Positions 5,396 to 40,801 are shown, numbered from the stretch's first letter. The stretch is 64,000 nucleotides of DNA from a virus (IMGVR_UViG_3300037692_000137:32001-96000); one strand, 5' to 3'. Translations and numbers: made by a program. Notes: generated from the sequence alone by a model not told the origin.

Positions 5396-5398
5396 AGC

Positions 5399-6548: not shown

Positions 6549-6575
6549 TACTTAATTACCTATTAACTTACATAA

Positions 6576-7510: not shown

Positions 7511-7538
7511 AGTATAACACATTTAAAAATATTGTCAA
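7511..7538 (-). promoter_or_regulatory. sigma70-type promoter upstream of the cytochrome gene
   Basis: TTGACA-16nt-TATACT; the -35 box overlaps the TGA stop of the radical SAM gene. Confidence 0.6.
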
Positions 7539-8482: not shown

Positions 8483-8609
8483 AAGTAAACACCCCCGCCC
8501 TAACTATGGTTATTAATAAAAAAACGGCAGAGAAAAGTGGCTAAACTATTTTTTGATTTCTGATTAATAGTCAGAATGAAGTAAGTATAGCCTACACTAC
8601 TGTCGTTTG

Positions 8610-8684
8610 CGCTGTGTACAGGATTCGAACCTGCGAGTTGCCGACTAGAAAGGCCGGTGTCTTAAACCACTTGACTAACACAGC
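8610..8684 (-). tRNA. tRNA-Glu(UUC), CCA not encoded, U37
   Basis: GCTGTGT/ACACAGC acceptor, G73, loop CT-TTC-TA, followed by CAA. Confidence 0.85.
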
Positions 8685-24528: not shown

Positions 24529-27500
24529 TTATTGTTCCTTACCACAAGTAGCACACACTAAATTTTGTCCATACTTGCCGCCGGCATCAAACTTAAATTC
24601 CTGACCACCACAACCACCCTTATCTTTATCACAGGTGCCTTTCATCCAACAGGCTGATATAAGCGCATCAGTTTCCATTGGAATAATTTTAAAGTACATA
24701 TTAAAACCATCCTTTATTGCTTGCTCTACTATCTTTGCAACTTCATATCTATATTCGTAGTCGCACTCAACAATTAGCTCATCGTGTACAGTTAAAAGTA
24801 ATTTAGCATAGTAGGGTAACACTTCTAAACGTTCTACAAGAAAAATCATGGCCTGTTTAATAGTGTCGGCATTCGAGTTATGTACCACCACACCATTGGC
24901 TGTAAAATAATGTATTTTATCACACATTAAATCATACGTATCTTCTACACCTCTATAAGTTAAAGAGGTAGCTTTACAAAAGTCAAAGTTTAAAAATTGT
25001 TCTAAATATTTTTTTTCTCTGCCTTCTGGTAATCTAATATAAAAGTGACGCCAACTGTAAAAAGAGCATTTACCTAATTTAAAGCGCCGCAAGTGTGCCT
25101 TTTCGGTAGAGGTAAATTCTGATAAGTAATTATCTGCTTTTCTTAAAGTTGCTTCTATTAATTTAGGTATAAATTCAGGCACCATACTGCCGTCACCGCA
25201 TCTTGGTGTATTTAATGCCATATTTAAAAGTTTACTTTTATCTAAAACCGAAAAACCTATCAACTCTTTAAATTGTTTATTAAATCTTTTAGGTATTTGA
25301 ATTCTATAAACCAACTCTCCGTTTTCACTATACTCCTTAAGATTAGAGTTTATGCCTAAGGAAAACAAAAGTTGCTGAATAGACTCCGCAAGCGCTTTTG
25401 AACTTGTTGTGTAGTTTGGACCACTGTTTTTCGTCATACCACCATCAGTAGAAAACAGTCCATTTAATAAAGCACCCTTGTTTTTTAAAGTCTCTGTATA
25501 AAAATAATCGGGGATGCTCTTATATCTCGCTGTAACATAATCCAAACCTACATACTTTAAGAAACCCCTTATAACAACGGAACTAGCTTGTGCCGTATAT
25601 AAAGGAGTAGTTCTATTTTTATATACAGTTCTTACAATAGGTTTGTAATTAAACACATTAAATACATAAGAATTGAATTTGTCGAATAGTTCTTTTTGGT
25701 ATTCTGGACAAATAAAACGTATATGATTATGTTCAGTATAATTACCATCACCAATTAAGCAGCCAATAATAAAAGCAAGCTCTTTTGACATCTCTTTAGG
25801 TGTAGTCTGTTCTTTATAGGTTTCTCGCCAGTGCTTTTTTTCATAAGTATACCCTGATAAATCGGACACCTTACCATCAATGGTATTCAACGGGATTAAA
25901 AAGTAGTCTTCATTTAATTTTATATTTTCTACTGCTTTTTCCTCAACACCATTTTCCGTAATCACAGGAATTTTGTGTTCTAATGTTATACCTAAATTAC
26001 TACCATTGGAAAGTTTTAAATCATACACTTTTTTCTTGCCTGAGTAAACACCTACAGCCGTATCCTTACCAAAACCAGTTTCCAAGGGTACTTGAGTGTT
26101 CACATAATTACCAATACTTCCTAACCCATTTATCTGACTGTCAAATACTAAACAACCCTGAATAGGCGCGTTCTTTGCCTGCCTTTTAACACCATTAATG
26201 ATAAATTTTCTATCTGGTGAGTCATACTTAGGTATGTCATAGAATCGTTTACGTCCTATAATAGTCTCACTATATCCTTTCCTTACGGCCTCATTAGATA
26301 AGTCTTCTAACCACTGCTTAATTTTAGGAAACATAGTAAAGTAATTAAGCATTAAGCGCTCGGCCTTCTTTTCTGATATCTTTAATCTACGACTCAAACC
26401 AAACTTGGAAAGACCATAGGCTAAACCGAAAGTAATCGCCTTTGAAGCTTTACGTTGTTCTTTAGATACCTTTTCATACTCTACATTAAAAACACCTGCT
26501 GCGGATTTAGTATGTAAATCAATACCGTCCAAGTAACAAGAAACAAACACGGGATCTTGTGACATATTACCTATGATACGTAGTTCGGCGCCGGACATAT
26601 CTGCGGTTATTAAAGCACAGCCTGGTTTAGCTATGAAGCAGCTTCTATAAATTTGTTTACCTGGTATATTTTGTAGGTTTGGGTTAGAGCTGCTTAGCCT
26701 ACCAGTTTGCATTAGTTGCTTAAAATCTGTGTGCAGTCTACCTGTAGTTGGGTGAATTTTATCCAGCAACGGTTGTCCATAAGTAGAAATAAGTTTTTCC
26801 GCTTTTCTATAAGCTAATATATTATCAATTACATTGACACCAGCGTACTTCTCAAGCTCCTCAACTGCCGTACCTTCAACCTCGATACCGTATTTTTTAA
26901 GTGCCTCCTTAAGCTGCTTAGGACTATCTATATTTATTAAAGATACACCAAATAACGTTGTTTGGTTTTCAGTAGCATCTAGTGTTTTTGTAATTTGAGC
27001 ATGGAGTTCATCTTTCTTTTTAGCTACTTCCTGCATAATCAAAAGCCAGCGCTCCGTATTAATTGTAATGCCGTTTAATTCCATCTCAGCCATGGGCTTG
27101 ACGAAATCAAATTCTAACTGACATACCTTCTCTAACGAGTGTTTAGCCACAGACAGTAATTGAGCATCACGTATTACACCTAAAGTACAAACGTCTAATG
27201 CCGCATACTCAAGTTGATAGTTTTGAAAATCCTGCTCATAGTCTGAGAAAGTACCACGAGGCTCTTTGTCCATAGCAAGCCCTAAATACCTTTGCACTAA
27301 TACGGATAATGCCGCTTTAACATAGGGTCTGCCGAGGTTTATCAGTTGTTCGGCTAACATTGTATCATATATATTGTTTATATAAAAGTTATAATGATGT
27401 TTAATCATTTTAACATCGTACAAAGCATTTTGAAGTAGTTTTAATTTAGTCCTATCTTCTAAAAGGTCCTTAAACAGCGATATATCAAATTCACTTTTAC

Positions 27501-27723
27501 CTATATCCTTTCTAATATCAAAAACAAAGGGCTGCCCTTGTACACCTAACTGTAATAAAACGAGCTTACCGTCAAAAGGAGATAAAGAGGTACCTTCTGT
27601 ATCTACCTCTATCATCTCAAATTGATTGATGTAGTCCAACGCGGCCAAGGCATCATCAAGTTTATTAATGTAAGTATACTTAGGAGCCGGCAATTTAGCA
27701 ACACTTTTATCAAAAACACCCAT
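24529..27723 (-). CDS. polA: Family A DNA polymerase (3'-5' exo plus pol, no 5'-3' exo) containing an intein
   Basis: DTEGT, YAALD, TGRLSSSNPNLQNIP, ADMSGAELRI, RKASKAITFGLAYG, NAPIQG|S.AD, LTVHDEL. Confidence 0.95.
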   Translation of the reverse strand: MGVFDKSVAKLPAPKYTYINKLDDALAALDYINQFEMIEVDTEGTSLSPFDGKLVLLQLGVQGQPFVFDIRKDIGKSEFDISLFKDLLEDRTKLKLLQNALYDVKMIKHHYNFYINNIYDTMLAEQLINLGRPYVKAALSVLVQRYLGLAMDKEPRGTFSDYEQDFQNYQLEYAALDVCTLGVIRDAQLLSVAKHSLEKVCQLEFDFVKPMAEMELNGITINTERWLLIMQEVAKKKDELHAQITKTLDATENQTTLFGVSLINIDSPKQLKEALKKYGIEVEGTAVEELEKYAGVNVIDNILAYRKAEKLISTYGQPLLDKIHPTTGRLHTDFKQLMQTGRLSSSNPNLQNIPGKQIYRSCFIAKPGCALITADMSGAELRIIGNMSQDPVFVSCYLDGIDLHTKSAAGVFNVEYEKVSKEQRKASKAITFGLAYGLSKFGLSRRLKISEKKAERLMLNYFTMFPKIKQWLEDLSNEAVRKGYSETIIGRKRFYDIPKYDSPDRKFIINGVKRQAKNAPIQGCLVFDSQINGLGSIGNYVNTQVPLETGFGKDTAVGVYSGKKKVYDLKLSNGSNLGITLEHKIPVITENGVEEKAVENIKLNEDYFLIPLNTIDGKVSDLSGYTYEKKHWRETYKEQTTPKEMSKELAFIIGCLIGDGNYTEHNHIRFICPEYQKELFDKFNSYVFNVFNYKPIVRTVYKNRTTPLYTAQASSVVIRGFLKYVGLDYVTARYKSIPDYFYTETLKNKGALLNGLFSTDGGMTKNSGPNYTTSSKALAESIQQLLFSLGINSNLKEYSENGELVYRIQIPKRFNKQFKELIGFSVLDKSKLLNMALNTPRCGDGSMVPEFIPKLIEATLRKADNYLSEFTSTEKAHLRRFKLGKCSFYSWRHFYIRLPEGREKKYLEQFLNFDFCKATSLTYRGVEDTYDLMCDKIHYFTANGVVVHNSNADTIKQAMIFLVERLEVLPYYAKLLLTVHDELIVECDYEYRYEVAKIVEQAIKDGFNMYFKIIPMETDALISACWMKGTCDKDKGGCGGQEFKFDAGGKYGQNLVCATCGKEQ
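24877..26154 (-). mobile_element. Intein (426 aa) with LAGLIDADG endonuclease in PolA
   Basis: Starts CLVFDSQ, ITLEHKI, IIGCLIGDG, LNGLFSTDG, ends YFTANGVVVHN, +1 Ser. Confidence 0.93.
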
Positions 27724-27728: not shown

Positions 27729-28799
27729 TTATCCTTTAACTAGATTAACTATCTTAAACATTTTATGATAAAATATCTGCTCACCTGGTTTTCCCGTTGT
27801 ATATATCGGGTCTATAATTATATCCAGCATCATAGAAAATTTGCGAGCTTCCGCAAATTTAGTACTGCGTTTAAGACAACCAACAAAGTACCCGCATATC
27901 GCTATGCGTATACCCTCAATAGATACAGTTTTAGCTAGAACTTCATAGTGTTTACAAGACTCTAACCATTTACCTGCCATAAGAGACTTACTTAAATCAA
28001 TTATAGCTGGTGTATTCTCTGCGGCTATGCCGCCTAAAATAGTATTAGCTGAGTCTATTGTCCAGGACCCCTCATTAATAACAGAGTCTAGCGCTACAAG
28101 AGCGTCTCTAGGTATACCCTTTGTTTCAGATACAATTAAGTTTAAAACCTCCTCATTATAGACTGTGCCCTCAAACTCTAAAACATTTGTTAGAATAGAA
28201 TGTAGCTGATCTTGAGGTAAAGCATCAAAAGTTACTTTTGTACATCTACTTAAAAACGCGTTACCTCCATCTTTTTTACTCTGTAGTTCTTCTGGCCTGT
28301 TTGTACAAAATATAAAGTAGATATAAGAATACCCATCTTCAGCATCCTTTAATAGTAGATCTTTAGCTGCAGCTGTGAGCATATGAGCCTCATCAAAAAT
28401 GATGACTTTGTTTCTAGAATTAAACGGCGCAAATGGTAGGGTATCCACAATGTCGCTCATATCAGACTTACCGCCATCCTTACCTACATTATGCTCTGTA
28501 ACATCCATACTACTACCACTTAGTATGGAAAGGCATGACGCACATTTTAAACAAGGTTGTGATGTAGACGTAGCTACAGATTCACAGTTTAGCCCCATGG
28601 CTACTATGCGTGCTGCAGTCGTTTTACCTGTACCGGCCGGACCACTAAATAATAACGTATGCGGTAGCTTATTACCATCTAAATAATTTTTTAACGTGGT
28701 TTTACTTACATTATTACCTACAAGCTCATCTACAGTACATGGCCTGTAAGCTGTCTGTAAACTATTACTTCTATTCTTTGATAATCTTTTTATTAGCAT
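27729..28799 (-). CDS. dnaX: DNA polymerase III gamma/tau-like clamp loader
   Basis: YRP..DELVG, GPAGTGKTT, PC.KC.SC, KVIIFDEAHML, SRC. Confidence 0.9.
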   Translation of the reverse strand: MLIKRLSKNRSNSLQTAYRPCTVDELVGNNVSKTTLKNYLDGNKLPHTLLFSGPAGTGKTTAARIVAMGLNCESVATSTSQPCLKCASCLSILSGSSMDVTEHNVGKDGGKSDMSDIVDTLPFAPFNSRNKVIIFDEAHMLTAAAKDLLLKDAEDGYSYIYFIFCTNRPEELQSKKDGGNAFLSRCTKVTFDALPQDQLHSILTNVLEFEGTVYNEEVLNLIVSETKGIPRDALVALDSVINEGSWTIDSANTILGGIAAENTPAIIDLSKSLMAGKWLESCKHYEVLAKTVSIEGIRIAICGYFVGCLKRSTKFAEARKFSMMLDIIIDPIYTTGKPGEQIFYHKMFKIVNLVKG

Positions 28800-29293
28800 A
28801 GATGTCTCCGATCAATCTCACTCTTAAGTAATTCGTAAATTTCATATAGAACACCACCGCCAGAGGGGGTATTTAAACATAAGGCCACTTTACTTTTTAT
28901 ATTTTTATTAGCATTGCTTGGACACACTGAGAATGGTACCCTATTTATGCATGGCAGGTCACTTCTGCCAAAACCTACATAAAGCATCTCATCTAATGTT
29001 ATCTCATAGCGCTGTAATATTTTAGTAATAAAGTCTAATTTATCTTTCTCTGCCCAGTAAAAAGGTATATTTTTACGTCTAAATAAGTTGTAATTTATAT
29101 ACTGATCTTTAGCTAAAAAAATAAATTTAAATGTCTTTTTTAATTCATTTACAATATCCAGATCCTGGGAGTTAAAAGTTTTAAATGGTACATTACCAAG
29201 CTCATCGTAAGTAATTAACCCATCTGTTACTATGCCATCAACTTCACTTACTATAACTTTTAGTTTAGTTAAATACTCATCAATGTTAATCAT
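28793..29293 (-). CDS. KdsC-like HAD phosphatase with the first motif-I Asp replaced by Glu
   Basis: IVSEVDGIVTDG..KTFN..D, YVG....DL, P.GGG.L.E. Confidence 0.75.
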   Translation of the reverse strand: MINIDEYLTKLKVIVSEVDGIVTDGLITYDELGNVPFKTFNSQDLDIVNELKKTFKFIFLAKDQYINYNLFRRKNIPFYWAEKDKLDFITKILQRYEITLDEMLYVGFGRSDLPCINRVPFSVCPSNANKNIKSKVALCLNTPSGGGVLYEIYELLKSEIDRRHLC

Positions 29294-29304
29294 ATTTAAT
29301 CCTA

Positions 29305-29964
29305 TTAATTATAAGAAAACTTTAATTTAATCATTGTGTCCTCTGCTCGGCCCCAAAAGTACTCTAAATCTTTCTGTCCGAAAACCAAGCGCCACACACC
29401 CACGTCTTTAAATAAGGGTTTATATAAAGTTAAATCCTCCAAAGGTTCTATAAGCTTATTACGAGGTTCCAATTTAAAGTAGTCACCTATGTGCATTAAC
29501 ATGGCGGTACCATCTATAAGCATCATGTCGTAGTTAACAAAATACATTTTATCTAAATTGCTATTAATAAACCCCTGAACATGATCTACCCAATACTGCA
29601 CTGGTTCCGAAAACATCCTTGGATCTAGAGGATTTTTAGTTTCTGCGGTCTTTTCAAACAAATCTTTATCGCTGTAAGCTTCTATATAGCCCATAATGTA
29701 CTGCCTAAAAGTCTTTCCTTCAAAGTGTTTTTTGGTTCCGGGCTGTTGTTTCCAATATTCATAGCAGTCGTACAATACATCTCTACCGTCCCGTACAACA
29801 TATAGAGTTAAATCACTATCAGTGATAGCTTTAACCATACTATCAGAGAAATGCCAGTGATTCTTGTCAAAATCATTACAATAATAGTTAGCCATTATGC
29901 TCCTAACAACATAAGAAGCGCCGGATTTTCTATGACAAAAAACTCTATTTATGTTCTTGCTCAT
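29305..29964 (-). CDS. PAPS-dependent sulfotransferase-like protein
   Basis: HRKSGASY (5'-PSB-like), YVVRDGRDV (3'-PB-like), W..HV, GVWR..F. Confidence 0.7.
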   Translation of the reverse strand: MSKNINRVFCHRKSGASYVVRSIMANYYCNDFDKNHWHFSDSMVKAITDSDLTLYVVRDGRDVLYDCYEYWKQQPGTKKHFEGKTFRQYIMGYIEAYSDKDLFEKTAETKNPLDPRMFSEPVQYWVDHVQGFINSNLDKMYFVNYDMMLIDGTAMLMHIGDYFKLEPRNKLIEPLEDLTLYKPLFKDVGVWRLVFGQKDLEYFWGRAEDTMIKLKFSYN

Positions 29965-31129
29965 TTTTATGCCCCCATAGTATCTTTGGCATAACTACAG
30001 ACTTCAGTTCTTGCGGTATCGTGTTTTTAATAACCGACATTGTGTACTCTATTTCTTGTTTTATACTTCTTGTTGGATTATACCCTAAACTTGGTAAAAT
30101 GTCAACTACATAATTATAGTAATGTGCTCCTGTGTACTCACTTCGTGGTGAAGGTATGTGTTGTTTGGAGCTGGGTACTCCTAGCTTAATAGCAACTTCT
30201 TCAACCAATTTAGTTATCTCCATGATTGAGTGCCATTCAGACAGCTGATTCCACACCTGTACCTTACCTGGGTTAGGTGGATTATTAACAGCTATTTCCA
30301 ATGCTTGAATACTGTCATTCAAAGATATAAAGCCTCTTTGGTGTAGACCCTCCCCATAAATTGTCATTGGCACACCAAGTAGTGTTTGTACAATAAAACG
30401 ATTAATAACAGTACCTCCAGCCTCATCACTATCAAGTCTACTATATACTTTGGTCTCGTCTATTTCGTCTGTATAGGAACCAAAAACAACAGACTGTTGT
30501 ACATCTGTACATTTTAAGTTCCAGGTGCGAGATAAAAAATCTATTAAGTAGGTAGACGCTGTTTTAGAACAGTGATAGATACTACCAGGCCTTCTTGGGT
30601 AAATCATCTCATTAGAAGTACGGCCTTTGTGATTAATCTTAATATAGCCTTCCTCAATATCTATGTTACTATAATGATCATACTCGCCCGTTGTGCCTAT
30701 TGTAATATAGTGTGCATTGGGGATATGTTTTTTTATTGCCCACAATAAATTATTTGTGGGTATAATATTGTTTACTAAAGTAAATTCAGCCTTCTCTTGT
30801 GAGATTTGGCTAAAAGGTGCTGAAGGTATATGGGCTAAGTTAATGACGGTGTCTGGTTTATATGTTGCAATTAAGTTCTCTACCTTAGTACTATCTGTTA
30901 ATAAATCAAAAGAATAGAATGTAAATTCACCTAGCTCATTAAGCCTACTAATCTTTTCTACCATTGGTAGTATGGGTGTAGCAGATTTAGATCCCATTAA
31001 ATCTTTTACCCAGAATCTACGTAAAAAGTTATCTACACCAACTACTTTAAACCCTTTGTTTAGTAAACGTTGAGTTAAGGCATTGCCAATGTAACCATCA
31101 CATCCTAACAATAATACTGTCTTATTCAT
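29945..31129 (-). CDS. sqdB: UDP-sulfoquinovose synthase
   Basis: GCDGYIG, DNFLRR, SAPFS, GTTGEY, NIDIEEGYI.I.H.GR, YHCSK, INRF..Q...G.P.TIYG.G; matches SqdB/SQD1 along its whole length. Confidence 0.9.
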   Translation of the reverse strand: MNKTVLLLGCDGYIGNALTQRLLNKGFKVVGVDNFLRRFWVKDLMGSKSATPILPMVEKISRLNELGEFTFYSFDLLTDSTKVENLIATYKPDTVINLAHIPSAPFSQISQEKAEFTLVNNIIPTNNLLWAIKKHIPNAHYITIGTTGEYDHYSNIDIEEGYIKINHKGRTSNEMIYPRRPGSIYHCSKTASTYLIDFLSRTWNLKCTDVQQSVVFGSYTDEIDETKVYSRLDSDEAGGTVINRFIVQTLLGVPMTIYGEGLHQRGFISLNDSIQALEIAVNNPPNPGKVQVWNQLSEWHSIMEITKLVEEVAIKLGVPSSKQHIPSPRSEYTGAHYYNYVVDILPSLGYNPTRSIKQEIEYTMSVIKNTIPQELKSVVMPKILWGHKNEQEHK

Positions 31130-31138
31130 TAGTGCTCC

Positions 31139-31906
31139 TTATTTTATGTCGAGCGCAGCTCTAAAAAGTTTTGATATTAAGAGATCACTTTGCAAAATCC
31201 CTTCTAGGTCATGTTCTAAAATAGAGTAGTCCTTGTGTTTACTAAACAATGAGTTGAACAATGTGATGGCTATCGGTCTAGAATCCATAATAAAGTCAGA
31301 CCCCTTGTTACTAAAAAATACTTGCCAATCTTCCCAAATGACCGGGTGAAACTTGGATTCTGGTAGCAATGCATAATGGTTAATATTATTGAACACGATA
31401 GGGCTCAAAAGTCTTAGGCCCAATTCTCCCCAGTAAAATGAAGTTTTGCTATCTATTAAGGTTTCTTGGGCTTTTAGATACTTAGTTATTATGTGCCCAC
31501 CTTCTACTGAAGCCATAAAACCATTACTTATACCATCAATTGTTCTAGTTTTATGGCAAGCCATAAATCCTTTTTCATTTATAACTTCCAGTAATGGTGT
31601 AAAGTCTTCGAGCACGATAGTGTCGGCGTCAAGCCACACCCCGCCATACTTATGAAGTAGAGCTGTTCTTATATATGCAGTACGTATAGCTATGTTCTTT
31701 GGCGAGTCTACTGAACTGCTGTCATGATGCAGCTCTTTGTACCTAGGATTTATTTCGGGTAAATAAGCCTCAACATTAGAGGGGTTTACAAGCATTATGA
31801 CACACTGGCTACCGCAGTTGGCTTGCATCGACTCAATGCATAGTTTTATATAGGCTGGCATGTCTTTTCCGGGCAGGTTTTCCCAATATACCCATATCAT
31901 ACACAT
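31139..31906 (-). CDS. DxD glycosyltransferase (GT32/capsule-synthesis-like)
   Basis: IWVYW..P..IKLC, R..LLHKYGGVWLDAD, NGFM, WGELG. Confidence 0.85.
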   Translation of the reverse strand: MCMIWVYWENLPGKDMPAYIKLCIESMQANCGSQCVIMLVNPSNVEAYLPEINPRYKELHHDSSSVDSPKNIAIRTAYIRTALLHKYGGVWLDADTIVLEDFTPLLEVINEKGFMACHKTRTIDGISNGFMASVEGGHIITKYLKAQETLIDSKTSFYWGELGLRLLSPIVFNNINHYALLPESKFHPVIWEDWQVFFSNKGSDFIMDSRPIAITLFNSLFSKHKDYSILEHDLEGILQSDLLISKLFRAALDIK

Positions 31907-31908
31907 AA

Positions 31909-32463
31909 TTAAATCTCCAACAAATATTGATTATTAATCCCGCCCTTTACAACACGCAACCTTCCATATGGATTAAGGTCTGACGGTGACCAGTTGGAGA
32001 TATGGCGTTCATTTTCATTTCCGTATACTGGTCCTTGTGGTTTAACCTTCTCCGGTAATACTACTATGCCTAGAATATTACGCTTAAGTTTTATCTGTTC
32101 AAGTAGTGCTTTGCCATCTTCAAGCGTGAAGTGCTCTAGAACTGCAGTACATAGTATTAAATCATAATTACCTAGTGTTGGAAGAACTTTCGACGCATCA
32201 CCAACATAAATACTATCATAAATCGCATATTGTATCTGGGTTAAATACTTATCAAAAACTTCTATACCATCTATACGTGTTGTCCAATTCCCGAATAGTC
32301 TACCGCTCCAAATGTCAGTATACTCTCGAGCCAAGAATCCGTTCTTGCCGAAGCCCACTCCTATATCTAGAACAGATTTTGGTTGTAGTTGTAGTATAGT
32401 ATCACATATATAGTTTAATGTTATAGGGCGTGATGTTGGCATGTTATGCTCCTCTATTTTCAT
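31909..32463 (-). CDS. Class I SAM-dependent methyltransferase
   Basis: VLDIGVGFG, DGIE, GDA, VLEHF. Confidence 0.85.
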   Translation of the reverse strand: MKIEEHNMPTSRPITLNYICDTILQLQPKSVLDIGVGFGKNGFLAREYTDIWSGRLFGNWTTRIDGIEVFDKYLTQIQYAIYDSIYVGDASKVLPTLGNYDLILCTAVLEHFTLEDGKALLEQIKLKRNILGIVVLPEKVKPQGPVYGNENERHISNWSPSDLNPYGRLRVVKGGINNQYLLEI

Positions 32464-33088
32464 TTATATTTATATTAATAACTCTGGTAGCTAGGGGTAT
32501 ATCTAAAAAGGCTAGTAAGCTCGATTGAACTTCTTTATCATTTAGTACCTCCTCAGTATTAAATAGTACAAAATTATCTTTAAATGCCATAGCATATTCT
32601 TCCGCTAAATTATAGTAGTCATCCCAGTAGTGTGCTATCGCATCTACTTTAGGTAAATTATATTTAGGGTAGCAATTATCGTATACGGAGTCAAGACGCC
32701 ATAAGTTACTATCCCAATAAGTGCTGCTTTTATCAGTCCAATGGTTGCGCTCTTTTAGTCCAGTCTTAAAGTTAGCAGCAGTCTTTTTAATGTAACTAGC
32801 AACCGTGTCTTTTTTAGTTCGTTTAAGACAAATAAATTTTGAATTGGGGTATTTGTCTAGTATGTATATAACATATGGTAGATGCCAAAAAGATACGTCG
32901 CATGCAAAAGAACCGTTGGTCCTATTTTGCATAGATGTAATAGTCCTGTCTATATGGTTTTTACTGAACTGCCATGGGGTTATGACTAATTCATGTGTTG
33001 AAGTAAACCCATTCTGTAAACCTAGTAGTTCTTTAAGAGACACGGTACCACATCGGCCAGTACCAAGACCAAAAATAAGCTGCTTCAT
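32444..33088 (-). CDS. Second sulfotransferase-like protein
   Basis: IFGLGTGRCGTVSL..LL, HE, KFICLKR.....VAS. Confidence 0.7.
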   Translation of the reverse strand: MKQLIFGLGTGRCGTVSLKELLGLQNGFTSTHELVITPWQFSKNHIDRTITSMQNRTNGSFACDVSFWHLPYVIYILDKYPNSKFICLKRTKKDTVASYIKKTAANFKTGLKERNHWTDKSSTYWDSNLWRLDSVYDNCYPKYNLPKVDAIAHYWDDYYNLAEEYAMAFKDNFVLFNTEEVLNDKEVQSSLLAFLDIPLATRVINININENRGA

Positions 33089-33861
33089 TATAATACCTCA
33101 TAATACTTTTTATATTTTTCAACAATACCGGCTGTTAGTACACGCTGTGTCCAGCCCCTATGTGGTGCCTCAGCTAAAGCATCCATAGTAACACCTAAAT
33201 CAATTAGACTTTTATTTCGAATGTCATGATCTTTCCAAAGGCGCTTAGCTAGTACACGTGTGGCCAGCCCTATTACAGGAAGTATTATATCACAATACTG
33301 TAATTTGTCAAGTATTTCCTCCATTTTATGATCTAAGGTGTAATAAGCATTCTCCACACCAGGAAAAGAAACAGTATGTGTAACGTTAAACATCTTCTCT
33401 ATAAGTTTATTATTACATAAAGGATCACCAGCTATCAGTAATACCTTTCTACCATAAAAAAAGCTATCAATAAATTTTACAAACCATTCTAGCTTATGCT
33501 CAAAAGCATACTGAAATATCAATGCGTGGTACCCCTCATCTGGATTGCCACGTAGTAATTTCCAAACATGTTTAAGTTGCCCATCTAAAAGCTGTTGTTG
33601 CACTCGTCTTTTTAGCCAAAAGTAGCTGCCACTACCATCCTCGAAAGAGCCTGCAGTACTAGACACGACATAGTTTAGATCAAATATTGTTAAAGACTCT
33701 CTTAGTTCTTGTCTTAGTTTAACACTATTTCTATGCCTTTGTTCATTAGGTGCCCCTTGTATAAGAGTTAAATCTCCATCACCGAATCTTATAAAGTAAA
33801 AAGGTGTGCCTTCATTTACCAATGTATCTAAATAATTACTTGTTTGTTCAATAGTTTTCAA
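33088..33861 (-). CDS. GT-D fold (DUF1792-like) glycosyltransferase
   Basis: FIRFGDGD, KVLLIAG, NAY, IDLG...DAL. Confidence 0.7.
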   Translation of the reverse strand: MKTIEQTSNYLDTLVNEGTPFYFIRFGDGDLTLIQGAPNEQRHRNSVKLRQELRESLTIFDLNYVVSSTAGSFEDGSGSYFWLKRRVQQQLLDGQLKHVWKLLRGNPDEGYHALIFQYAFEHKLEWFVKFIDSFFYGRKVLLIAGDPLCNNKLIEKMFNVTHTVSFPGVENAYYTLDHKMEEILDKLQYCDIILPVIGLATRVLAKRLWKDHDIRNKSLIDLGVTMDALAEAPHRGWTQRVLTAGIVEKYKKYYEVL

Positions 33862-33873
33862 TTCAACTTCTCC

Positions 33874-34764
33874 TTATATTAAGGTGAGTTCTCCAGACCA
33901 GTTGTCTAATTGTAGTGCAAAATCTACATAGTCTTTATAGTGCGGATCTAATCTCATCATTTTAGTTGCGTTTAATGCAACCTCCCTTAAAGCCTCAACA
34001 CGATCCATAAATAGTTCCTGTTTAAACGGTAATTTACCGATCCTGTTTTGACCATAAAAGCCTATGTGTATTTGCCTATCACATGCCGGAGAATAAGACC
34101 TCAACCCTTCTTCAATAAAAGCTGTATCAATTAACCTATTAACAAGCCCGTCCCAACCAATATGTTGAAATAAATTTTTACGCTCTGGTCTATATTTAGA
34201 TCTTTTATCATTCCCATTGCGCTTATTAATAAGATGGATAATAGCTTCTCTATTAGCATAGTAATCATATGTGGCATAAGGTCTTACATATTTAGTAAAA
34301 AAATAGTTATCCATTAAGCAGGCAGGTGCTTCGAATAGATTTGTGGCTTGTATAGCATTTATATTGGTATTAGGCACTAATCTACGACTGGCATTAATAA
34401 CAGAAAAGTTACTATCCTTTAATAAGCTTAATGCTGTAGCCATATATGTAAAGTAGGTCTCATGTAGTAAACAATCATCCTCTATATTTAATACATAATC
34501 AGCCCCTTCAAAAAATACCTGCTTAAAACCCTCTAAAATGTTGCCCCAACCAAAATGTCTGAATGGTCTCATGACAATTGTTTTTTCAAAAGGGTAATAA
34601 TCGTTTATTAGCTCAACACATTTAGGATCAGCATTAAACTCTAATGCAAACAACGTACTATAGTTATCAGTATTTAGTCTTTTCCGCGACTTTATTTCGT
34701 ACTCCATAGACAGGTAAAGCATCTCTGGTCTATTATACACAGCTCTTAATATACGACCGTTCAT
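33874..34764 (-). CDS. GT-A fold glycosyltransferase
   Basis: YNRPEML, IEDD, QIHIG. Confidence 0.65.
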   Translation of the reverse strand: MNGRILRAVYNRPEMLYLSMEYEIKSRKRLNTDNYSTLFALEFNADPKCVELINDYYPFEKTIVMRPFRHFGWGNILEGFKQVFFEGADYVLNIEDDCLLHETYFTYMATALSLLKDSNFSVINASRRLVPNTNINAIQATNLFEAPACLMDNYFFTKYVRPYATYDYYANREAIIHLINKRNGNDKRSKYRPERKNLFQHIGWDGLVNRLIDTAFIEEGLRSYSPACDRQIHIGFYGQNRIGKLPFKQELFMDRVEALREVALNATKMMRLDPHYKDYVDFALQLDNWSGELTLI

Positions 34765-34779
34765 TTATATACCCTCCCC

Positions 34780-35262
34780 TCATCTCTTATATACTTCCAA
34801 TACAAAGTTGGACCCCTCAAATTTGTGAGCTGTTGGTATTAAATTGGCCTCGGTACATAAAGCAGAAAGCCATTTGACATCAAACATAACAAAGTGAAAG
34901 TTACCTGGGTAATCTTGTCCACCAAACATATGATAAGATACAAACTTAGCATCACCTGTTTGTCTATAATATTCCACAGCCCATTGCATATTTGGTGTAC
35001 GAATTTCCATTATACCACCATGCTTTAATAGCCTGGCCCATTCTTTAAGTAGACCAATAGTTTTGCTTATTGGGAAATGTTCTATTATGTCGCTCGCAAG
35101 TATATAATCAAACCGCTCATTGGGCAGGTCTACTGCCTCAACATTACCTACTATATCAACACCTTCTAAGGGGCGTATATCTAAGTTTACACACGTATAC
35201 CCTTTGGGGTATTCTTTGTATATGCGGTTGCCACAACCAATGTTTAAAGTTTTTTTAGTCAT
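34780..35262 (-). CDS. Class I SAM-dependent methyltransferase
   Basis: LNIGCG, NLDI, DIIEHF, RLLKHGG...IRTP. Confidence 0.88.
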   Translation of the reverse strand: MTKKTLNIGCGNRIYKEYPKGYTCVNLDIRPLEGVDIVGNVEAVDLPNERFDYILASDIIEHFPISKTIGLLKEWARLLKHGGIMEIRTPNMQWAVEYYRQTGDAKFVSYHMFGGQDYPGNFHFVMFDVKWLSALCTEANLIPTAHKFEGSNFVLEVYKR

Positions 35263-35268
35263 AATATA

Positions 35269-36393
35269 TTATTTTAATTCAAGTTCTTTAAGTAATTTTG
35301 TACCAATGACGGTTAAAGAAAAATTAGTATTTATATACTGCTTTAATCTTTGCCCTGTTGTTTTGGCGGCCTCTTTATTATCATAAACAAACTTCATTAA
35401 GTCAGCGCCATTTTTTACATCAGGCTCTGCCCAAAGTTGATCACCTCTATACCATGGACTCCATGGCATACCGTAAACAGGTGTTAGTGTGTAATTTACT
35501 AAATAGCTATTATCTTGTTTGGCATATTCTGTCACGCCGCCAAATCCTGTGATTACTACTGGATTACCGAAAGCACCAGCCATAAAAGGACCTATGCCAA
35601 AACCTTCTCCTCTATCTAATGAAACGTAGCAATCACCTCTTTCATGTAACCCATTAATTTCATCCTCGGTTAGCATGTCTGGTAGTAAATAAATGGGTGG
35701 GTATTTGTCCATAGGTGTCACAGCTTTTAGTTTTCTTATGGTAATTCTTATGGCTTCTTTTTCTTCCTCGCTGTAATCACTACGATAAGTTTTTAGTACA
35801 AGAGCCACGTCTTCATTATTCTGAAATGCATGCCAGTAAGCTTTTATAAGAGCGGTGGGGTGTTTTCTTTCAGTAAATTGAAATATACTATAAAACATGT
35901 ACGTATCCTTAGATACACCGCTTATGTCATAAGGAACTGCTGTCTCTACGTAACTTAAGTCCATACAATGTGGCACCACCCCTATAGGAATAGTAACACC
36001 ACTACGTTTAAATACCTCTTTATTCCACTCACAACCAACCAAAACTTTATCTACGTTATTATTTATATACATTTTCCAATCTGGGTGTAGTAAATCGGTC
36101 TCCCATATAGTGTAGCCAATGTTCTTCTTTCCCTTTTCCCTGTATCTAGACCAGAATTCCGGTGTTGTATGTATGATCACTGTATCATAGTCCACCTTAG
36201 TATCCATTAACTTTGTTAAAAGGACTCCATCAGCACCTAAGTCTGGTTTTGCTTTTTCAAATGAAATAGGATCTAATGTTATGGGCACACCAAGTGAATG
36301 GAGTGCCAGAATATTACCACGACAGGCTTTTGCATAACCTGAATTGTCTAGAATTGGCCCTATATATTTTATACCTTTAATAGTCATTTCCAT
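35269..36393 (-). CDS. GT4 family glycosyltransferase
   Basis: SGYAKA, TIWET, ERKH...LI, RGEGFG..P..A, GGV.EY. Confidence 0.9.
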   Translation of the reverse strand: MEMTIKGIKYIGPILDNSGYAKACRGNILALHSLGVPITLDPISFEKAKPDLGADGVLLTKLMDTKVDYDTVIIHTTPEFWSRYREKGKKNIGYTIWETDLLHPDWKMYINNNVDKVLVGCEWNKEVFKRSGVTIPIGVVPHCMDLSYVETAVPYDISGVSKDTYMFYSIFQFTERKHPTALIKAYWHAFQNNEDVALVLKTYRSDYSEEEKEAIRITIRKLKAVTPMDKYPPIYLLPDMLTEDEINGLHERGDCYVSLDRGEGFGIGPFMAGAFGNPVVITGFGGVTEYAKQDNSYLVNYTLTPVYGMPWSPWYRGDQLWAEPDVKNGADLMKFVYDNKEAAKTTGQRLKQYINTNFSLTVIGTKLLKELELK

Positions 36394-36466
36394 ACCTTAT
36401 AGAAAGTGCCTAATCCTGGTAGGCACTATTAAATATAATATGATTCCAGGAAACCTGCTTTTATAC

Positions 36467-36730
36467 TTACATTTGTGGGCCAGAGGGCATAGGACCACTG
36501 GCACTATCAGCGCTAATATCAAAAGTTACTACCTCAGCTTCTACCATAACCAAACGACTCTCATCCAGCCAGGTCCAATCAGGGATGTCACCATTCTCAT
36601 TTACTCTCTTTGGTTGCAATCCGTAGTGGATGCACCCAGTAGAATAGAAAGCCACCACCATTACAACACCCTCTAAACCTGTTATTTTATCTTTTAATAA
36701 ATCGCCGTTAGTAAACTTAGCTTCTCGCAT
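36467..36730 (-). CDS. Hypothetical phage protein
   Basis: KD.ITG.EGVV....Y.TGC..Y..QP...W.DE.RL. Confidence 0.65.
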   Translation of the reverse strand: MREAKFTNGDLLKDKITGLEGVVMVVAFYSTGCIHYGLQPKRVNENGDIPDWTWLDESRLVMVEAEVVTFDISADSASGPMPSGPQM

Positions 36731-36784
36731 AATAATGCTCCTGTAAATCTAATTGTTAATGTTTTACGTACAACTCTGATTATT

Positions 36785-37060
36785 TTACTTCAGTGTGTCC
36801 TCTTTTATATCATCTTTCCAAAGATGATAAGTAAGGGGTGTCCTATTTTCTCGGGCGGAATAATGACTATACTCATCTTTGGTGTCCTTTATGAATTGTA
36901 AATACGCGTGATATTTACAACAAGCAAAACATCTATATTCAGCTTCTAAAATTGTCCATGCGCCTATTGATGTTAAGTAGAAAACAACATATGGGCGTAC
37001 AAAGTATACCTTAGTTTTAGTAAAAAACCTATTAAATAATTTAATTATTTTATCAAACAT
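36785..37060 (-). CDS. Hypothetical protein
   Basis: ORF track, 91 aa. Confidence 0.5.
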   Translation of the reverse strand: MFDKIIKLFNRFFTKTKVYFVRPYVVFYLTSIGAWTILEAEYRCFACCKYHAYLQFIKDTKDEYSHYSARENRTPLTYHLWKDDIKEDTLK

Positions 37061-37091
37061 AATACCCCCATTTAAATACTGCTATAATATA

Positions 37092-37373
37092 TTATAGTGC
37101 TAAGCGGACGGTGGTTATATCTAACAAAATTTCACCATCGGAACCGCTGGTTTTTAATGCTTCACCAGTAACTTTGTATATTATAGCAAAATAATCGCAT
37201 AAAGTCAATACCTCTTTTGATACAGATAATCCAATCTCCGCTTCACCTGTTAAATGATTTATAGAGAGCTTTATATTACCTGAGGCTATTATGTTTGGCT
37301 CGTGGGGATTATTAGTTCCACGATAGTATATTTCAAACATTGCATACCTCGCTGGCTTAATAAATGCAATCAC
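37092..37373 (-). CDS. Hypothetical protein
   Basis: ORF track, 93 aa. Confidence 0.45.
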   Translation of the reverse strand: MIAFIKPARYAMFEIYYRGTNNPHEPNIIASGNIKLSINHLTGEAEIGLSVSKEVLTLCDYFAIIYKVTGEALKTSGSDGEILLDITTVRLAL

Positions 37374-37533
37374 AACTCATATAAGTATAACTATGTCTTT
37401 TAATAGTAGACTTAGGCTTAGGACGATCATAGATACGTTCTTTCCAATGATCCTCGTCGCCACAAACAGGACAGAGTGCGTGATGAAATAAATACCAATA
37501 GTGTTTATTTTGTTTTATTTTAGTAGCGTTCAT
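37357..37533 (-). CDS. Small Zn-ribbon-like protein (58 aa)
   Basis: Manual: MNATKIK..HALCPVCG..SCDCIY; abuts the thyX stop. Confidence 0.45.
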   Translation of the reverse strand: MNATKIKQNKHYWYLFHHALCPVCGDEDHWKERIYDRPKPKSTIKRHSYTYMSCDCIY

Positions 37534-38349
37534 CTAAATTACCTCTTTTTGCGTCTCTTTCCACAAGCCGTAGCCAGCAAGAACTTCATCCTTCGTTGGA
37601 TATTTACCACAACTACGTAGTTTATTCTCAGAGCAGTAACCCGCTTGTTGGCATTTTGGCCCAACATTTTTAAAAACTACGGGTAAAGCCTCTTTACATA
37701 GGGCCAGCATCTCATTAGCCACGATACGAATTTCCCATTGTGATAATGTACAACAACGCAGGCCAAAGAAGTGTATTAAACTAACACAATTTTTTGTAGT
37801 TACAAGTCTAGTAATAGCAGCATTGGGCATAAGGTAACGAGCGTCCTCGCTCTTAATATGCAACCCTTTAAGCTTATTATACGCTTGTTGTATATACTCT
37901 AATGTATCAACATAAATCTGTTTAGCTTCTTCATTTTTAGCTATAGAAGGTGGAATTACAAAATTATTGATATCAAACTCCCCATCATTAGCCACATACC
38001 TTTGGGACTGCTGGGAATAGCTAGCCATGCGGTGACGTACATGTTGATGGCTATCAGCACGTGATATACCATCAATAGCAAATGTAAATTTCACATGTTC
38101 GAGAACACTTGTGTGTCCTGATTTAAATAGATGGTTTATTAAACCCTCTATTTCTTTATCTGTACATAAGTGGCCGTCTTTATTATCAGTGATTGATACG
38201 AAGCCTTCCTCATCTTCTTGCCAGGAATCCCCAACCCAGCCCTCAGAATAGCACTGTCGGCCGGCAGCAAATAATAGTTTTTCAGCATTAGCGGAAACAT
38301 CCAGTAATTTAATTCTTAGCATATTGTAACCTCTAGCCACCAAAACCAC
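37534..38349 (-). CDS. thyX: Flavin-dependent thymidylate synthase
   Basis: GHTSVLEH, SRADSHQHVRHRMASYSQQSQRY, ARYLMP, FFGLR.....QWEIR. Confidence 0.95.
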   Translation of the reverse strand: MVLVARGYNMLRIKLLDVSANAEKLLFAAGRQCYSEGWVGDSWQEDEEGFVSITDNKDGHLCTDKEIEGLINHLFKSGHTSVLEHVKFTFAIDGISRADSHQHVRHRMASYSQQSQRYVANDGEFDINNFVIPPSIAKNEEAKQIYVDTLEYIQQAYNKLKGLHIKSEDARYLMPNAAITRLVTTKNCVSLIHFFGLRCCTLSQWEIRIVANEMLALCKEALPVVFKNVGPKCQQAGYCSENKLRSCGKYPTKDEVLAGYGLWKETQKEVI

Positions 38350-38521
38350 AGAATGGGCAAAATTTTAAACTTTTAGAATATAATCTTTTACAAAGATCGC
38401 ACGCGTACTCAGCATCGGTATTACTATAGGCCTTTTCAGTTTCTTTTTTATCAATTTGTGTTTGTTTTTGTTCCAATTTAATAGTAACCTCTTCCATTTT
38501 AGTACTCCCACAATTATCTGC

Positions 38522-38547
38522 TAAAGAGGGGCTTACACCCCTCTTTA
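38522..38547. terminator. Terminator-like hairpin after the GT4 gene
   Basis: TAAAGAGGGG-CTTACA-CCCCTCTTTA. Confidence 0.6.
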
Positions 38548-38551
38548 AGAG

Positions 38552-40102
38552 TTAAAACGTCTCTGCCTTTATAACATTACTAGTTTGTTGTGCTGCTACT
38601 TCAACTGTCTTAATTTTTTGTGAAACTATAGACTTAGATAAAGCATCAAAAGTTTTAACCCAAATATTACCAACCGCTGTTTGCCAATCTAAGGTGCCTG
38701 TAACAAATTTATACGCCTGTTCCGCCTTAGTCGTTGCCTCTTCATAATTATTATACACATGTAGCATCTTGTCGGTTAGATCTTCTACATCGACTAGCGG
38801 GCGTCTTACCTCGTTGTCATAAGGAAGTACTGTCCATAGGCTGGGGTTAGTACCACTTTTTACAAGGTAGCCCACATCCTCAGTAATATTTTCTATCATT
38901 GCGGTGTTTCTAGGCATAATAACGGGTGTTCTAGTGGCCATGGCCTCTATCCAGGAAAGCCCCCAACCCTCACCAAGGCTAGCACTAATTACGCAGTCAA
39001 CACAATTATATAACATATTAACTATCTCTCTCGGATAGCCTTGGTTAGGTCCAAAGTTCTGAGGAAATATTATGTCCTCTGATAGACTAAAATCGTATGC
39101 TCTGCAAACCTCTGGTAGATTCCAACCTTGATCTTGTTTAGCCATATGTAAATACAGTAAAGTGTTTGGTTCCTTTTTACGTAACTCATAAAATGCTTGA
39201 ATAGTTCTAGGAATATCTTTACGTTGCTGATTTCTATTTAAATTCATGTAGATAAACTTATCTGAGTGACGGCCAAAATAGCGTTTTCTAAAATCAATTA
39301 CTTCCTCACTAGGCAGCGGTTTAAACTCACTAGTATTAACCCCATGAGGGATTACAGACATGTTGCCAACAATTGGATATACTTCTTGGCATAGCTTTCT
39401 TCCAAAATTAGCATAGGTAACTACCTCATCACAAAAACTAATGTTCTTTACCCATTCTGGTTTTGGTGTGCCGTCAATAGGAAAGTATACTATAGACTTA
39501 AAAGGTGTCTCCCTGTTCTTTTTAAGATGTGGTATTAGCTCAGGTAAAAAGTCTAATATGAAACTATCCTGCATAAAAAACAATATATCAAAATCCATTT
39601 TGGGAATCATGTTGACAATCTTTTTACGGCCGTACGGATCTCTTTCCGCATTATTACCAACGGGCCAAATCCTATACGGAAAATTATGAGGATCGCCCCA
39701 GTAGTTTATACCCAGTACTTCAATGTCATACCTGCCAGTTCTGTGTAGTGCCTCTAAAACATTACGACTAACGGTACCAAAACCTGTTGCCAAATATCTT
39801 CGCATAAGAACGTTACTTCTTATACCGCTCTATTAGAGCTGCTGCATGTTTCCATGCAAGTTGAGACTATATCATCGACCACTTGGGCCGCCACGCGCTT
39901 CCACTCACTTGAGTGTACTTCCTTTCGGAATAGTCGTTGTACCTTCCTCTATAAAGAGGCTTGGCTCAGGATTGTCCTCGACTTGACGTTAGGAGTTTCC
40001 CTGAATTCACGTAGTTATTCGATACACATTGCTGTGTAAAGCTGCACATTATTTACAGGTAGGTGTATCCATGTAACATAAAATTTTAGTCTTTCTTTCC
40101 AT
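38552..40102 (-). CDS. GT4 glycosyltransferase split by a group I intron (exon 1 40102-40055, exon 2 39790-38552)
   Basis: The spliced product reads MERKTKILCYMDTPTC|ATGFGTVSRNV in frame; AAGGAG SD before 40102; NRNQQRKD, EGWGL..IEAMA. Confidence 0.9.
39791..40054 (-). ncRNA. Group I self-splicing intron, 264 nt, no internal ORF
   Basis: Exon ends in U with a P1 U-G pair to GCAG; core AATTCAGGGAAAC (P), AATCCTGAGCCAAG (Q), CAACGACTA (R), GATATAGTCT (S; P7 GACTA/TAGTC); GNRA-capped P9; terminal G. Confidence 0.92.
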
Positions 40103-40111: not shown

Positions 40112-40801
40112 TTAATTGTTTAATAATCTTTCACGATTACACATTAAAATTGAATACCAATTCTTGTGCCAAGTTCTATCTGTATTAGCACGAGAATTGC
40201 AACTTCTACATATAGTTATTAAATTAATAGGTCTACAGTCTTCCTTATCATAATTTATATGATGTATGGTTAACTCTTTAGTTACGCCAAAGCAACAAGG
40301 ATTCCTACAAATATTGTTATCCCTGTATTTTATAGCTTCTTTGTAAACTTTATCTTTCCAAGCGTCACAATAAGGTTTTAATGATACACCTCCTTTCCAA
40401 CTAGGGTTACCTGAACCAGTAATTTTAATAGCATGACAAGTTGGACACCTATAACCACCATTATTCCAATCTGTCCATGTCATAGTGTGTACATGCCCTA
40501 AAGGGCATTTGTATTCTAATTTAGTTTTCTGATTAGTGTACTTATCTGATAGTAAGGTGTACCCTTCTTTCAGCATAGCTCTACATATTGTAATCAAAGT
40601 GCATTTTATATTACCAGCACATTTAGCACACCTATGCCCATTTAACCAGTTGCTCCAACTTATAGAGTGTGTATGTCCTTTAGGACAAATATAAGTTAGT
40701 TTTTGTAAATTGTTAATATAAACACTACTCAATAGTATGTAACCTTCCGCAGCAAAGGACTCTCGTACATACCCATAAGTTAAGCGTTTACCTGAAGACA
40801 T
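40112..40801 (-). CDS. Free-standing HNH endonuclease with Zn-ribbon repeats
   Basis: CPKGH..W..GHRC..C repeats; NPSWKGG; IHHINYDK.....NLITIC.SCN. Confidence 0.85.
   Translation of the reverse strand: MSSGKRLTYGYVRESFAAEGYILLSSVYINNLQKLTYICPKGHTHSISWSNWLNGHRCAKCAGNIKCTLITICRAMLKEGYTLLSDKYTNQKTKLEYKCPLGHVHTMTWTDWNNGGYRCPTCHAIKITGSGNPSWKGGVSLKPYCDAWKDKVYKEAIKYRDNNICRNPCCFGVTKELTIHHINYDKEDCRPINLITICRSCNSRANTDRTWHKNWYSILMCNRERLLNN

Follow-up and report, generated by a model that had tools for sequence, protein, structure and literature searches.

Virus-encoded glycosylation is established in giant viruses, in a few actinobacteriophages and on phage DNA. The chloroviruses PBCV-1 and NY-2A and the mycobacteriophages Che8, Corndog and Myrna encode soluble glycosyltransferases (GTs) and methyltransferases, with no genes for lipid carriers or export; T4 (alpha/beta-GT), RB69 and DLP3 (arabinosyl-5-hydroxycytosine, 5hoC) and RL38J1 glycosylate their DNA. 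No phage has yet been shown to have a sulfonated or sulfated glycan. In the literature searched, a viral UDP-sulfoquinovose synthase is described only from a Mu-like contig that carries one such gene, read there as boosting host N-glycosylation (PMC7785012), and nothing links phage sulfotransferases with SqdB. Here we describe a cluster of glycan-related genes, hereafter the island (positions 28793–40102), in a stretch of 64,000 nucleotides (the window) that comprises bases 32001–96000 of IMGVR_UViG_3300037692_000137, a linear IMG/VR virus of 234,228 bp with a CheckV completeness of 89%. With slightly less than even confidence, we read the island as a working, phage-encoded and fully cytoplasmic glycosylation pathway whose product would be an anionic, methyl-capped glycan, with virion proteins as its most likely acceptor.

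As in the chlorovirus and mycobacteriophage systems, soluble GTs are combined in the island with methyltransferases, without lipid-carrier or export genes, and the best solved relative of both its GT4 enzymes, GT4a and GT4b, is B736L of chlorovirus NY-2A. Unlike those systems, the island adds sulfotransferases and an SqdB-like enzyme, lies in a replication module and is known here from its genes alone. With the DNA-glycosylating phages it shares the presence of GT-B enzymes, a HAD-like protein and a sugar-nucleotide enzyme among genes of nucleotide metabolism, but it has additional GT-A, GT-D, sulfotransferase and methyltransferase genes, and no ThyA-homologous base hydroxylase or hydroxymethylase was found with it (dCTPase was not sought). 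Cellular parallels are offered by the Agl3-dependent N-glycan of Sulfolobus and by NodH and LpsS sulfation in rhizobia, where a sulfo-sugar synthase and/or sulfotransferases dependent on 3'-phosphoadenosine 5'-phosphosulfate (PAPS) also accompany GTs; these cells, however, assemble their glycans on lipid carriers and export them, whereas the island is viral and has no membrane component. It differs from Wzx/Wzy or ABC surface polysaccharide loci in having no priming phosphoglycosyltransferase, flippase or transporter, or polymerase, and from SqdB operons in that the neighbours of its SqdB-like gene encode GT-A, GT-D, GT4, methyltransferase and sulfotransferase proteins, not SqdX, SqdD or SqdC. 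The system is a variant within virus-encoded glycosylation and not a new category.

Gene content and setting of the island

The island consists of a tight run of ten genes and, beyond thyX, a second GT4 gene, all on the minus strand. This arrangement had been described in an initial annotation of the window, as had its location between polymerase/clamp-loader and recombination genes, and the order of Pfam matches agrees with both. On one side lie ribonucleotide reductase (RNR), dUTPase, a family-A DNA polymerase and the clamp loader; on the other are three small open reading frames (ORFs), ThyX, GT4b, a CapR/HNH endonuclease, a PD-(D/E)XK nuclease, RuvC, DnaJ, primase, DnaB, RecA and the beta clamp. 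From GT4a to the clamp loader, consecutive genes either overlap by 1–20 nt or are separated by 2–15 nt, which points to one translationally coupled unit continuing into the replication genes. GC content is 0.33–0.39 throughout the window and the island does not stand out. A scan for promoters and terminators was uninformative, giving no more sites than shuffled sequence. The virus record is present in sediment metagenomes, and a minor fraction of the island's sequence words is shared with further runs from sediment and groundwater.

Two sulfotransferases, five GTs, two methyltransferases and an SqdB-family enzyme had been proposed, and domain, homologue and fold evidence bears out the whole set; the enzyme families give good support to a phage-encoded pathway for a sulfated, methylated glycan. 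ST2, the GT32-like protein, the GT-D protein and the methyltransferase MT2 pass Pfam gathering scores. A sequence search of the PDB gave no significant match for ST1, ST2, GT-D, GT32 or MT2, and a PHROG search returned next to nothing for the island genes.

The first sulfotransferase, ST1 (29305–29964), is assigned to the PAPS-type fold from its AlphaFold2 (AF2) model and its homologues. It scores 19.3 bits against Sulfotransfer_1 (PF00685), under the cut-off of 22, but an exhaustive search found relatives amounting to 68 representatives, and 38 of 40 aligned relatives matched that family. The top 50 Foldseek matches of the ST1 model (pLDDT 93.6) are all PAPS sulfotransferases (TM 0.52–0.66). 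Retained are K13-S-G of the 5'-phosphosulfate loop, H36 at the catalytic position and R58, which corresponds to the residue for the 3'-phosphate; the consensus Ser66 and RKG are altered. ST2 (32444–33088) is above the gathering score of both Sulfotransfer_3 (PF13469, 30.8 bits against a cut-off of 27) and Sulfotransfer_4 (PF17784, 25.3 against 22.8), and has the PAPS-binding motifs GTGRCGT and KRTKKDTVAS.

Among the GTs, the GT32-like GT-A enzyme (31139–31906) matches Caps_synth and Gly_transf_sug and has DAD as its DxD motif, while a GT-D fold protein of the DUF1792 type (33088–33861) is recognized by Pfam. A further GT-A enzyme, of 296 residues and GT13/GT2-like (33874–34764), has no Pfam match and is identified by its AF2 fold. 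It belongs to a rare family, with 39 clusters in 5.8 billion proteins, whose distant members match Glycos_transf_2; its model (pLDDT 94.5) is nearest to GnT-I, POMGNT1, GnT-II and SpsA, and an invariant E95-D96-D97 is present as in GnT-I. The two GT4 proteins are GT4a (35269–36393), a GT-B enzyme with a weak Pfam match and a match to a PHROG glycosyltransferase (E 3.8e-19), and the intron-split GT4b (see below), whose 28.2 bits against the GT4-conflict model of Pfam exceed the cut-off of 26. Both methyltransferases are of the S-adenosylmethionine (SAM) type. MT1 (31909–32463) has a weak Pfam match and a classical VLDIGxGxG motif, and a homologue is the second gene downstream of SqdB within the cluster of a phage-like contig of about 220 kb (L020); MT2 (34780–35262) matches Methyltransf_11/23 and forms a conserved gene pair with the 296-residue GT-A.

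Conservation and modularity

The island is conserved, selected and modular. It is syntenic as a whole in two sibling contigs, L002 and L013, and in a more distant relative, L025. Relative to L002, the ratio of non-synonymous to synonymous substitution rates (dN/dS) of island genes ranges from 0.007 to 0.17, the lower value being that of ST1, the most conserved island protein with 97% identity to its L002 orthologue. This synteny and purifying selection are more than chance.

Against this background, GT32 and MT1 behave differently: they are only 37% and 49% identical to the L002 copies but 55% and 69% identical to those of L025, although the genome outside these two genes is closer to L002 than to L025. 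The two were swapped together as a cassette, a process also seen at serotype loci. The regions compared were 31139–32463 in the window, L002:8102–9999 and L025:13024–14353, and in L002 an extra ORF lies between the two genes. In the still more distant L026, GT4b-GT4a-MT2-GT-A are kept and are followed by a GT9 gene and a cupin/mannose-6-phosphate isomerase-like gene before the contig ends. From the part retained in L026 and the swapped GT32/MT1 pair, the locus is seen to combine a stable core with variable genes.

The SqdB-like enzyme

The SqdB-like protein (29945–31129) is an extended short-chain dehydrogenase/reductase (SDR) of the SqdB/SQD1 family. It aligns with Arabidopsis SQD1 (PDB 1qrr/1i24) at full length, over residues 3–355, with an e-value of 1.8e-73 and 251 bits, whereas other solved SDR families score at most 41 bits; identity to SQD1, estimated by eye from the printed alignment, is around 45%. 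As in SQD1, SqdB and Agl3, the GxxGxxG NAD site is present (G-C-D-G-Y-I-G, residues 9–15), along with the catalytic Thr, Tyr-His and Lys, in GTTGEYD and SIYHCSK segments that are conserved in the 120 nearest homologues, the equivalents of Glu147 and Tyr148 following the Thr, and that of Ser180.

The active site differs from that of the cellular enzymes. The reference set for comparison comprised SQD1, Agl3 and three cellular homologues: those of S. meliloti and Loktanella, each encoded in an sqdB-GT operon, and that of Pseudonocardia. Where these have HF[G/A]EQR[S/A]APYS in one loop, the island protein has NLAHIPSAPFS, in which a new His replaces the Glu, and T-M-G (T-L-G in Pseudonocardia) is replaced by T-T-G. 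In Agl3 numbering, His95 has become Asn, Arg101 Pro and Met145 Thr; the Pro, the Thr and the new His are P102, T146 and H100 of the island protein. The 120 nearest homologues, 57–100% identical to the island protein, all read NLAH[I/N]PS and GT[T/A/V]GEYD, and the new His, two residues ahead of the lost Arg, is invariant among them. The SqdB-like enzyme is thus a member of a compact clade, associated with phages, whose active site is altered.

The initial annotation had named this enzyme a UDP-sulfoquinovose synthase. Its place in the family stands, but the specific activity is less secure: the missing marker residues and a score below the cut-off in NCBIfam leave the sulfonate part of the proposal plausible only. 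The predicted product is UDP-sulfoquinovose or a related C6-modified UDP-hexose, and we lean slightly towards the former. It is nevertheless a serious possibility, if short of probable, that the enzyme is not a sulfoquinovose synthase and instead stops at UDP-glucose-5,6-ene, adds another C6 nucleophile or is some other dehydratase or epimerase. In that case the two sulfotransferases would be the only source of sulfur in the glycan, and any acceptor would be compatible. Several observations count in this direction, and so against a sulfonated product. The H95A, R101A and M145A mutants of Agl3 are inactive (PMC4388408), and these are the very residues lost, in all 120 nearest homologues as opposed to the HF[A/G]EQR and GT[M/L]G of the cellular references; the evidence for the role of Arg101 comes from the Agl3 mutagenesis alone. 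The [ST]MG part of the [ST]MG...Yx3K signature given for the sulfoquinovose synthase family (PMC8987622) is lacking, the score against the NCBIfam equivalog NF041015 is 363.5 bits where the cut-off is 575 (although this remains by far the best model), and many members of the clade have no sulfotransferase neighbours. Opposed to this are the gulf between SQD1 and the next SDR family in alignment score and the retention of the catalytic and neighbouring residues listed above. The new invariant His could, moreover, take the place of the lost Arg, and an uncharacterised haloarchaeal SqdB homologue has the same Pro and Thr at the two positions. Sulfotransferase genes beside SqdB in three lineages and an APS kinase gene in one would also fit a product centred on sulfur. 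The loss of three Agl3-essential residues suggests either an alternative way of adding sulfite or a new sugar.

A clade on phage-like contigs

The surroundings of the clade point to phages. Apart from one 11-kb contig made up entirely of glycan genes, every neighbourhood inspected, those of the present lineage included, carries phage genes: QueC, dCMP deaminase and radical SAM genes in L018, L023 and L024 (about 76–223 kb), RNR, primase and RecA in the 220-kb L020, other phage genes in L022 (240 kb), gp32 in L043, Dam methylases and RecA in L044, and RNase H, RNR, primase, gp5 baseplate and PAAR in L045. No contig among the top 120 matches exceeds 0.31 Mb. The neighbours of the SqdB-like gene are almost always GTs and methyltransferases, with sulfotransferases in three lineages, and several unrelated large-phage lineages (for example L018, L020, L023, L024, L043 and L044) have GT, methyltransferase and often sulfotransferase genes next to it. 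The cluster of L015 additionally has NeuC/WecB-like, PseB-like and TylF-like genes, and the variety of neighbours suggests that such cassettes build varied, mostly acidic glycans. A short gene for adenosine 5'-phosphosulfate (APS) kinase lies within the SqdB/sulfotransferase cluster of L024 (12030–12404), and that phage would top up PAPS itself.

In a small tree, made without plant and cyanobacterial sequences, the phage-type clade is monophyletic (support 90/83) and apart from cellular SqdB. SqdB is also the best-conserved protein between the phage described here and an unrelated 223-kb phage, G002, at 66% identity against 24–55% for others, which suggests either exchange among phages or strong constraint.

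A cellular origin was sought among the metagenome-assembled genomes (MAGs) in which the gene has been binned. In 401 genomes from the phylum of an 'Arcobacter' MAG, and equally in 401 from that of a 'Parcubacteria' MAG, the phage-type protein was matched only on the index MAG's own contig, with one other genome in each set giving a distant match of 36–37%. Four MAG contigs came from a scan limited to close relatives in species-representative genomes. One of the four is phage-like by way of an equivalent ENA contig encoding an identical protein, and two, L014 and L015, carry glycan genes only; the ENA contig L043 encodes the same protein as L017, binned as 'Arcobacter'. L014 and L015 are probably mis-binned viral or mobile DNA. 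Both are about 11 kb long and come from MAGs of two phyla, labelled Parcubacteria and WOR-3; their MT2-GT-A-ST1-SqdB genes give identical scores, and the sibling SqdB is named Patescibacteria.

Deposited phages gave no match to the island in a DNA-level search, and a protein search with SqdB through 50,697 records returned only distant epimerases, at 23–25% identity (24% for the best match). The view that such a pathway would be unusual in a phage is upheld by this result.

The acceptor of the glycan

Three targets had been suggested for the glycan: virion proteins, the host surface and phage DNA. No island protein has a 19-residue hydrophobic segment (maximum Kyte-Doolittle value 1.6), and the island's domain matches include no flippase, polymerase or priming transferase (Wzx/Wzy/PGT), which places the acceptor in the cytoplasm. 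Neither APS kinase, PAPS reductase nor NTP-transferase was found in the genome record, at its 89% completeness, so PAPS, sulfite and UDP-glucose would be supplied by the host.

Of the three, the phage's own virion or structural proteins are the best supported on present, indirect evidence, and we propose them tentatively, as a reading that falls somewhat short of probable. Two grounds for them are the parallel with chloroviruses and mycobacteriophages and the standing of chlorovirus B736L as the closest solved structure to both GT4 enzymes. The orthologues of GT4b in two cultured siphophages, which lie within or next to the head module, are also relevant. Synechococcus phage S-CBS4 has the gene, together with another GT gene and one for a methyltransferase, in the interval that separates the portal from the head protease/major head protein. 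In TJE1, a phage of Tetrasphaera, it comes after the genes for an epimerase and a methyltransferase and lies directly upstream of that for the terminase. GT-D enzymes are not known outside the elongation of protein O-glycans, which we count towards a virion-protein acceptor. A candidate modification site is provided by the tripeptide SGT. Within the virion module (84–200 kb of the genome; window position 52136 onward and beyond the window), ORFs contain 43 instances against 14 expected (z 8.4), placing it among the two most enriched tripeptides there. The instances are spread over 24 otherwise unrelated proteins and are usually preceded by V, I or T, and the other 35.5 thousand residues encoded by the genome contain only six. 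In the sibling phage 14 of 17 alignable sites are kept. Candidate acceptors are a 517-residue protein with four SGT sites (genome 101707–103260) and the virion protein matching phrog_16122 (genome 161106–162263). SGT may therefore serve as a sequon, to judge from these counts. Threonine-rich tails were also considered as acceptor tags and were rejected for this phage, in which only one protein has a Thr run.

Some results tell against virion proteins as the acceptor, or against the pathway as a whole. The island lies within a replication/recombination module and not beside structural genes, and no RNA run was found to contain the island region. The excess conservation of SGT is small, since about 10.6 retained sites would be expected from a hand estimate based on per-protein identity. 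The tripeptide is not enriched in G002, a jumbo phage that carries SqdB (8 instances against 13.6 expected), so it is no general partner of that enzyme. Finally, most of the ORFs treated as structural have no PHROG match and are assigned by position only; a PHROG search with ten presumed virion proteins gave almost no matches.

Remodelling of the host envelope is, in our judgement, unlikely. Here the island would modify a host lipid or a precursor of lipopolysaccharide (LPS) or capsule on the inner face of the membrane and leave export to the host, giving, for example, a sulfolipid resembling sulfoquinovosyl diacylglycerol or a sulfated core oligosaccharide, and the benefit would be superinfection exclusion or the sparing of phosphorus for DNA synthesis. 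The position of the island, suited to expression with early/replication genes, is in keeping with such a role. In L043, moreover, SqdB is followed directly by a GT4, recalling sqdB-sqdX, and the canonical sqdB operons of S. meliloti and Loktanella likewise pair SqdB with a single GT. In other lineages SqdB has neighbours of KdsA-like type and of GT9, the family of LPS heptosyltransferases, but neither GT9, KdsA nor KdsB was found in the present genome record. Five GTs, two sulfotransferases and two methyltransferases far exceed what a sulfolipid needs, and the GT4 enzymes have viral GTs and glycogen-synthase-type models as their best relatives, resembling the former and not SqdX in the searches made, which included no direct comparison with SqdX. 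The island's lack of membrane segments and of any phage-encoded flippase, polymerase or priming transferase, and hence of export machinery, also speaks against the host surface.

Hypermodification of DNA, in which the GTs would place a sulfo-sugar chain on a modified base and so block host nucleases, as in T4, RB69/DLP3 and RL38J1, appears very unlikely, despite the placement of the island between polymerase/clamp-loader and ThyX/nuclease genes. Phages known to glycosylate their DNA, with up to three sugars, do so by means of GT4-like GT-B enzymes, HAD-like phosphatases and sugar-nucleotide genes of their own (PMC13326640), a set that the island's gene types parallel. The score of GT4b against the GT4-conflict model and the QueC/radical SAM or Dam genes near SqdB in other lineages can be read in the same way. 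However, searches found no ThyA-type hydroxymethylase/hydroxylase (PF00303, with positive controls in 10 of 14 genomes) and no TET/JBP match (PF12851, a search without a positive control), which leaves this genome with no known route to a hydroxyl handle; at 89% completeness of the record these absences are not final. ThyX, with its canonical thymidylate synthase motif, looks ordinary. GT-A, GT-D, sulfotransferase and O-methyltransferase enzymes are without known precedent on DNA, and the GT4b orthologues of cultured phages sit in head modules. DNA is thus the target that these results disfavour, and virion proteins remain our preferred acceptor.

A degenerate KdsC-fold protein

The gene at the clamp-loader end of the island (28793–29293), which overlaps the clamp-loader gene by 7 nt, encodes a HAD-like protein of the KdsC/YrbI fold. 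It matches PDB 2p9j (E 6e-11), and the NCBIfam models for KDN-9-phosphate phosphatase and KdsC below their cut-offs. The initial description as KdsC-like is correct for the fold, but neither the phosphatase nucleophile nor the Mg-binding pair is preserved. In alignments with 2p9j and 3n1u, motif I is S-E-V-D-G in place of D-x-D-G, the nucleophilic Asp having become Glu, and motif IV is G-F-G in place of G-D-D, the Mg-binding Asp-Asp having become Phe-Gly; the L025 orthologue reads E-V-E, with Glu at both motif I positions. Purifying selection (dN/dS 0.075 against L002) indicates that the protein is functional in some way, probably not through phosphatase chemistry, and it is probably a non-catalytic partner or scaffold. 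A precedent exists in vertebrate CMP-sialic acid synthetase, where an inactive KdsC-like C-terminal domain is a tetramerisation platform.

Intron, insert and other features of the window

The second GT4 gene lies beyond thyX as had been described, but is split by a group I intron without an ORF (39791–40054, minus strand, with boundaries set from intron-less homologues). Rfam Intron_gpI matches at 39842–40064 with 83.5 bits (E 9.5e-20). Exon 1 (40055–40102) contributes 16 codons and exon 2 spans 38552–39790; joined at 40055 and 39790 they read DTPTC|ATGFG, restoring the D-[ST]-P-T-C-A-T-G-F motif found in the uninterrupted homologues of L025 and L026. Immediately upstream of the split gene is a free-standing CapR/HNH endonuclease gene (40112–40801, minus strand); L025 and L026 have a PD-(D/E)XK nuclease gene with GT4b, there without an intron, as the very next gene. 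Intron and free-standing homing endonuclease may work together. An ORF with a LAGLIDADG domain between GT4a and MT2 in L026 (8131–9495) is a further sign of homing-element traffic at the locus.

GT4a and GT4b are separated by ThyX, a flavin-dependent thymidylate synthase with the canonical RHRxxS motif (37534–38349), and by three small ORFs of 87, 91 and 93 residues (36467–37373) that are kept in L002 and L013. ThyX is not a glycan gene; it and the small ORFs form an insert, GT4b and GT4a adjoining each other in L026.

Elsewhere in the window and on the same strand, the family-A DNA polymerase (24529–27723, 1064 residues) contains an intein with a LAGLIDADG domain, its orthologues in L002/L013 and L025 being intein-less and 638 residues long. 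Five clustered tRNA genes are recognized by Rfam at 2529–8684. A 2268-residue ORF with a discoidin (F5/8 type C) domain (55274–62080), preceded by a 1042-residue ORF without a family match, is probably a fibre or adhesin.

Proposed pathway and significance

From the observed gene identities, folds and conservation, and from the membrane segments and precursor genes found to be absent, we infer the chemistry, step order and acceptor as follows. The SqdB-like SDR would convert host UDP-glucose to a C6-modified UDP-hexose, with sulfite most likely to UDP-6-sulfoquinovose. GT4b and GT4a, the GT-A with the EDD motif, the GT-D enzyme and the GT32-like enzyme would then build a short sugar chain, directly attached to an acceptor in the cytoplasm, ST1 and ST2 would add sulfate esters from host PAPS, and MT1 and MT2 would O-methylate the chain using SAM, with the degenerate KdsC-fold protein as a probable non-catalytic partner or scaffold. 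The outcome would be a strongly anionic, methyl-capped glycan on an acceptor like that of the chloroviruses and mycobacteriophages, whose structure would be diversified by swaps of GT32/MT1 between sibling phages.

The recurrence of the SqdB-like clade on many large phage-like contigs makes this a testable and widespread viral trait. A bolder proposal, which we consider rather unlikely, is that a virus-specific, rewired SqdB-like clade has spread through the jumbo and T4-like phages that inhabit sediments and groundwater and gives them a sulfonated, sulfated virion glycan coat, attached in the present phage at a [V/I/T]-S-G-T sequon. If that is so, bacterial viruses would have their first example of a sulfo-glycosylated particle, and sulfoquinovose biology would gain a new branch. 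A coating of this kind on virions would have consequences for particle charge, adsorption, binding to mucus and minerals, and evasion of immunity or defence, and would imply a hidden viral share in the organosulfur cycle, through sulfoquinovose, of anoxic sediments and aquifers.

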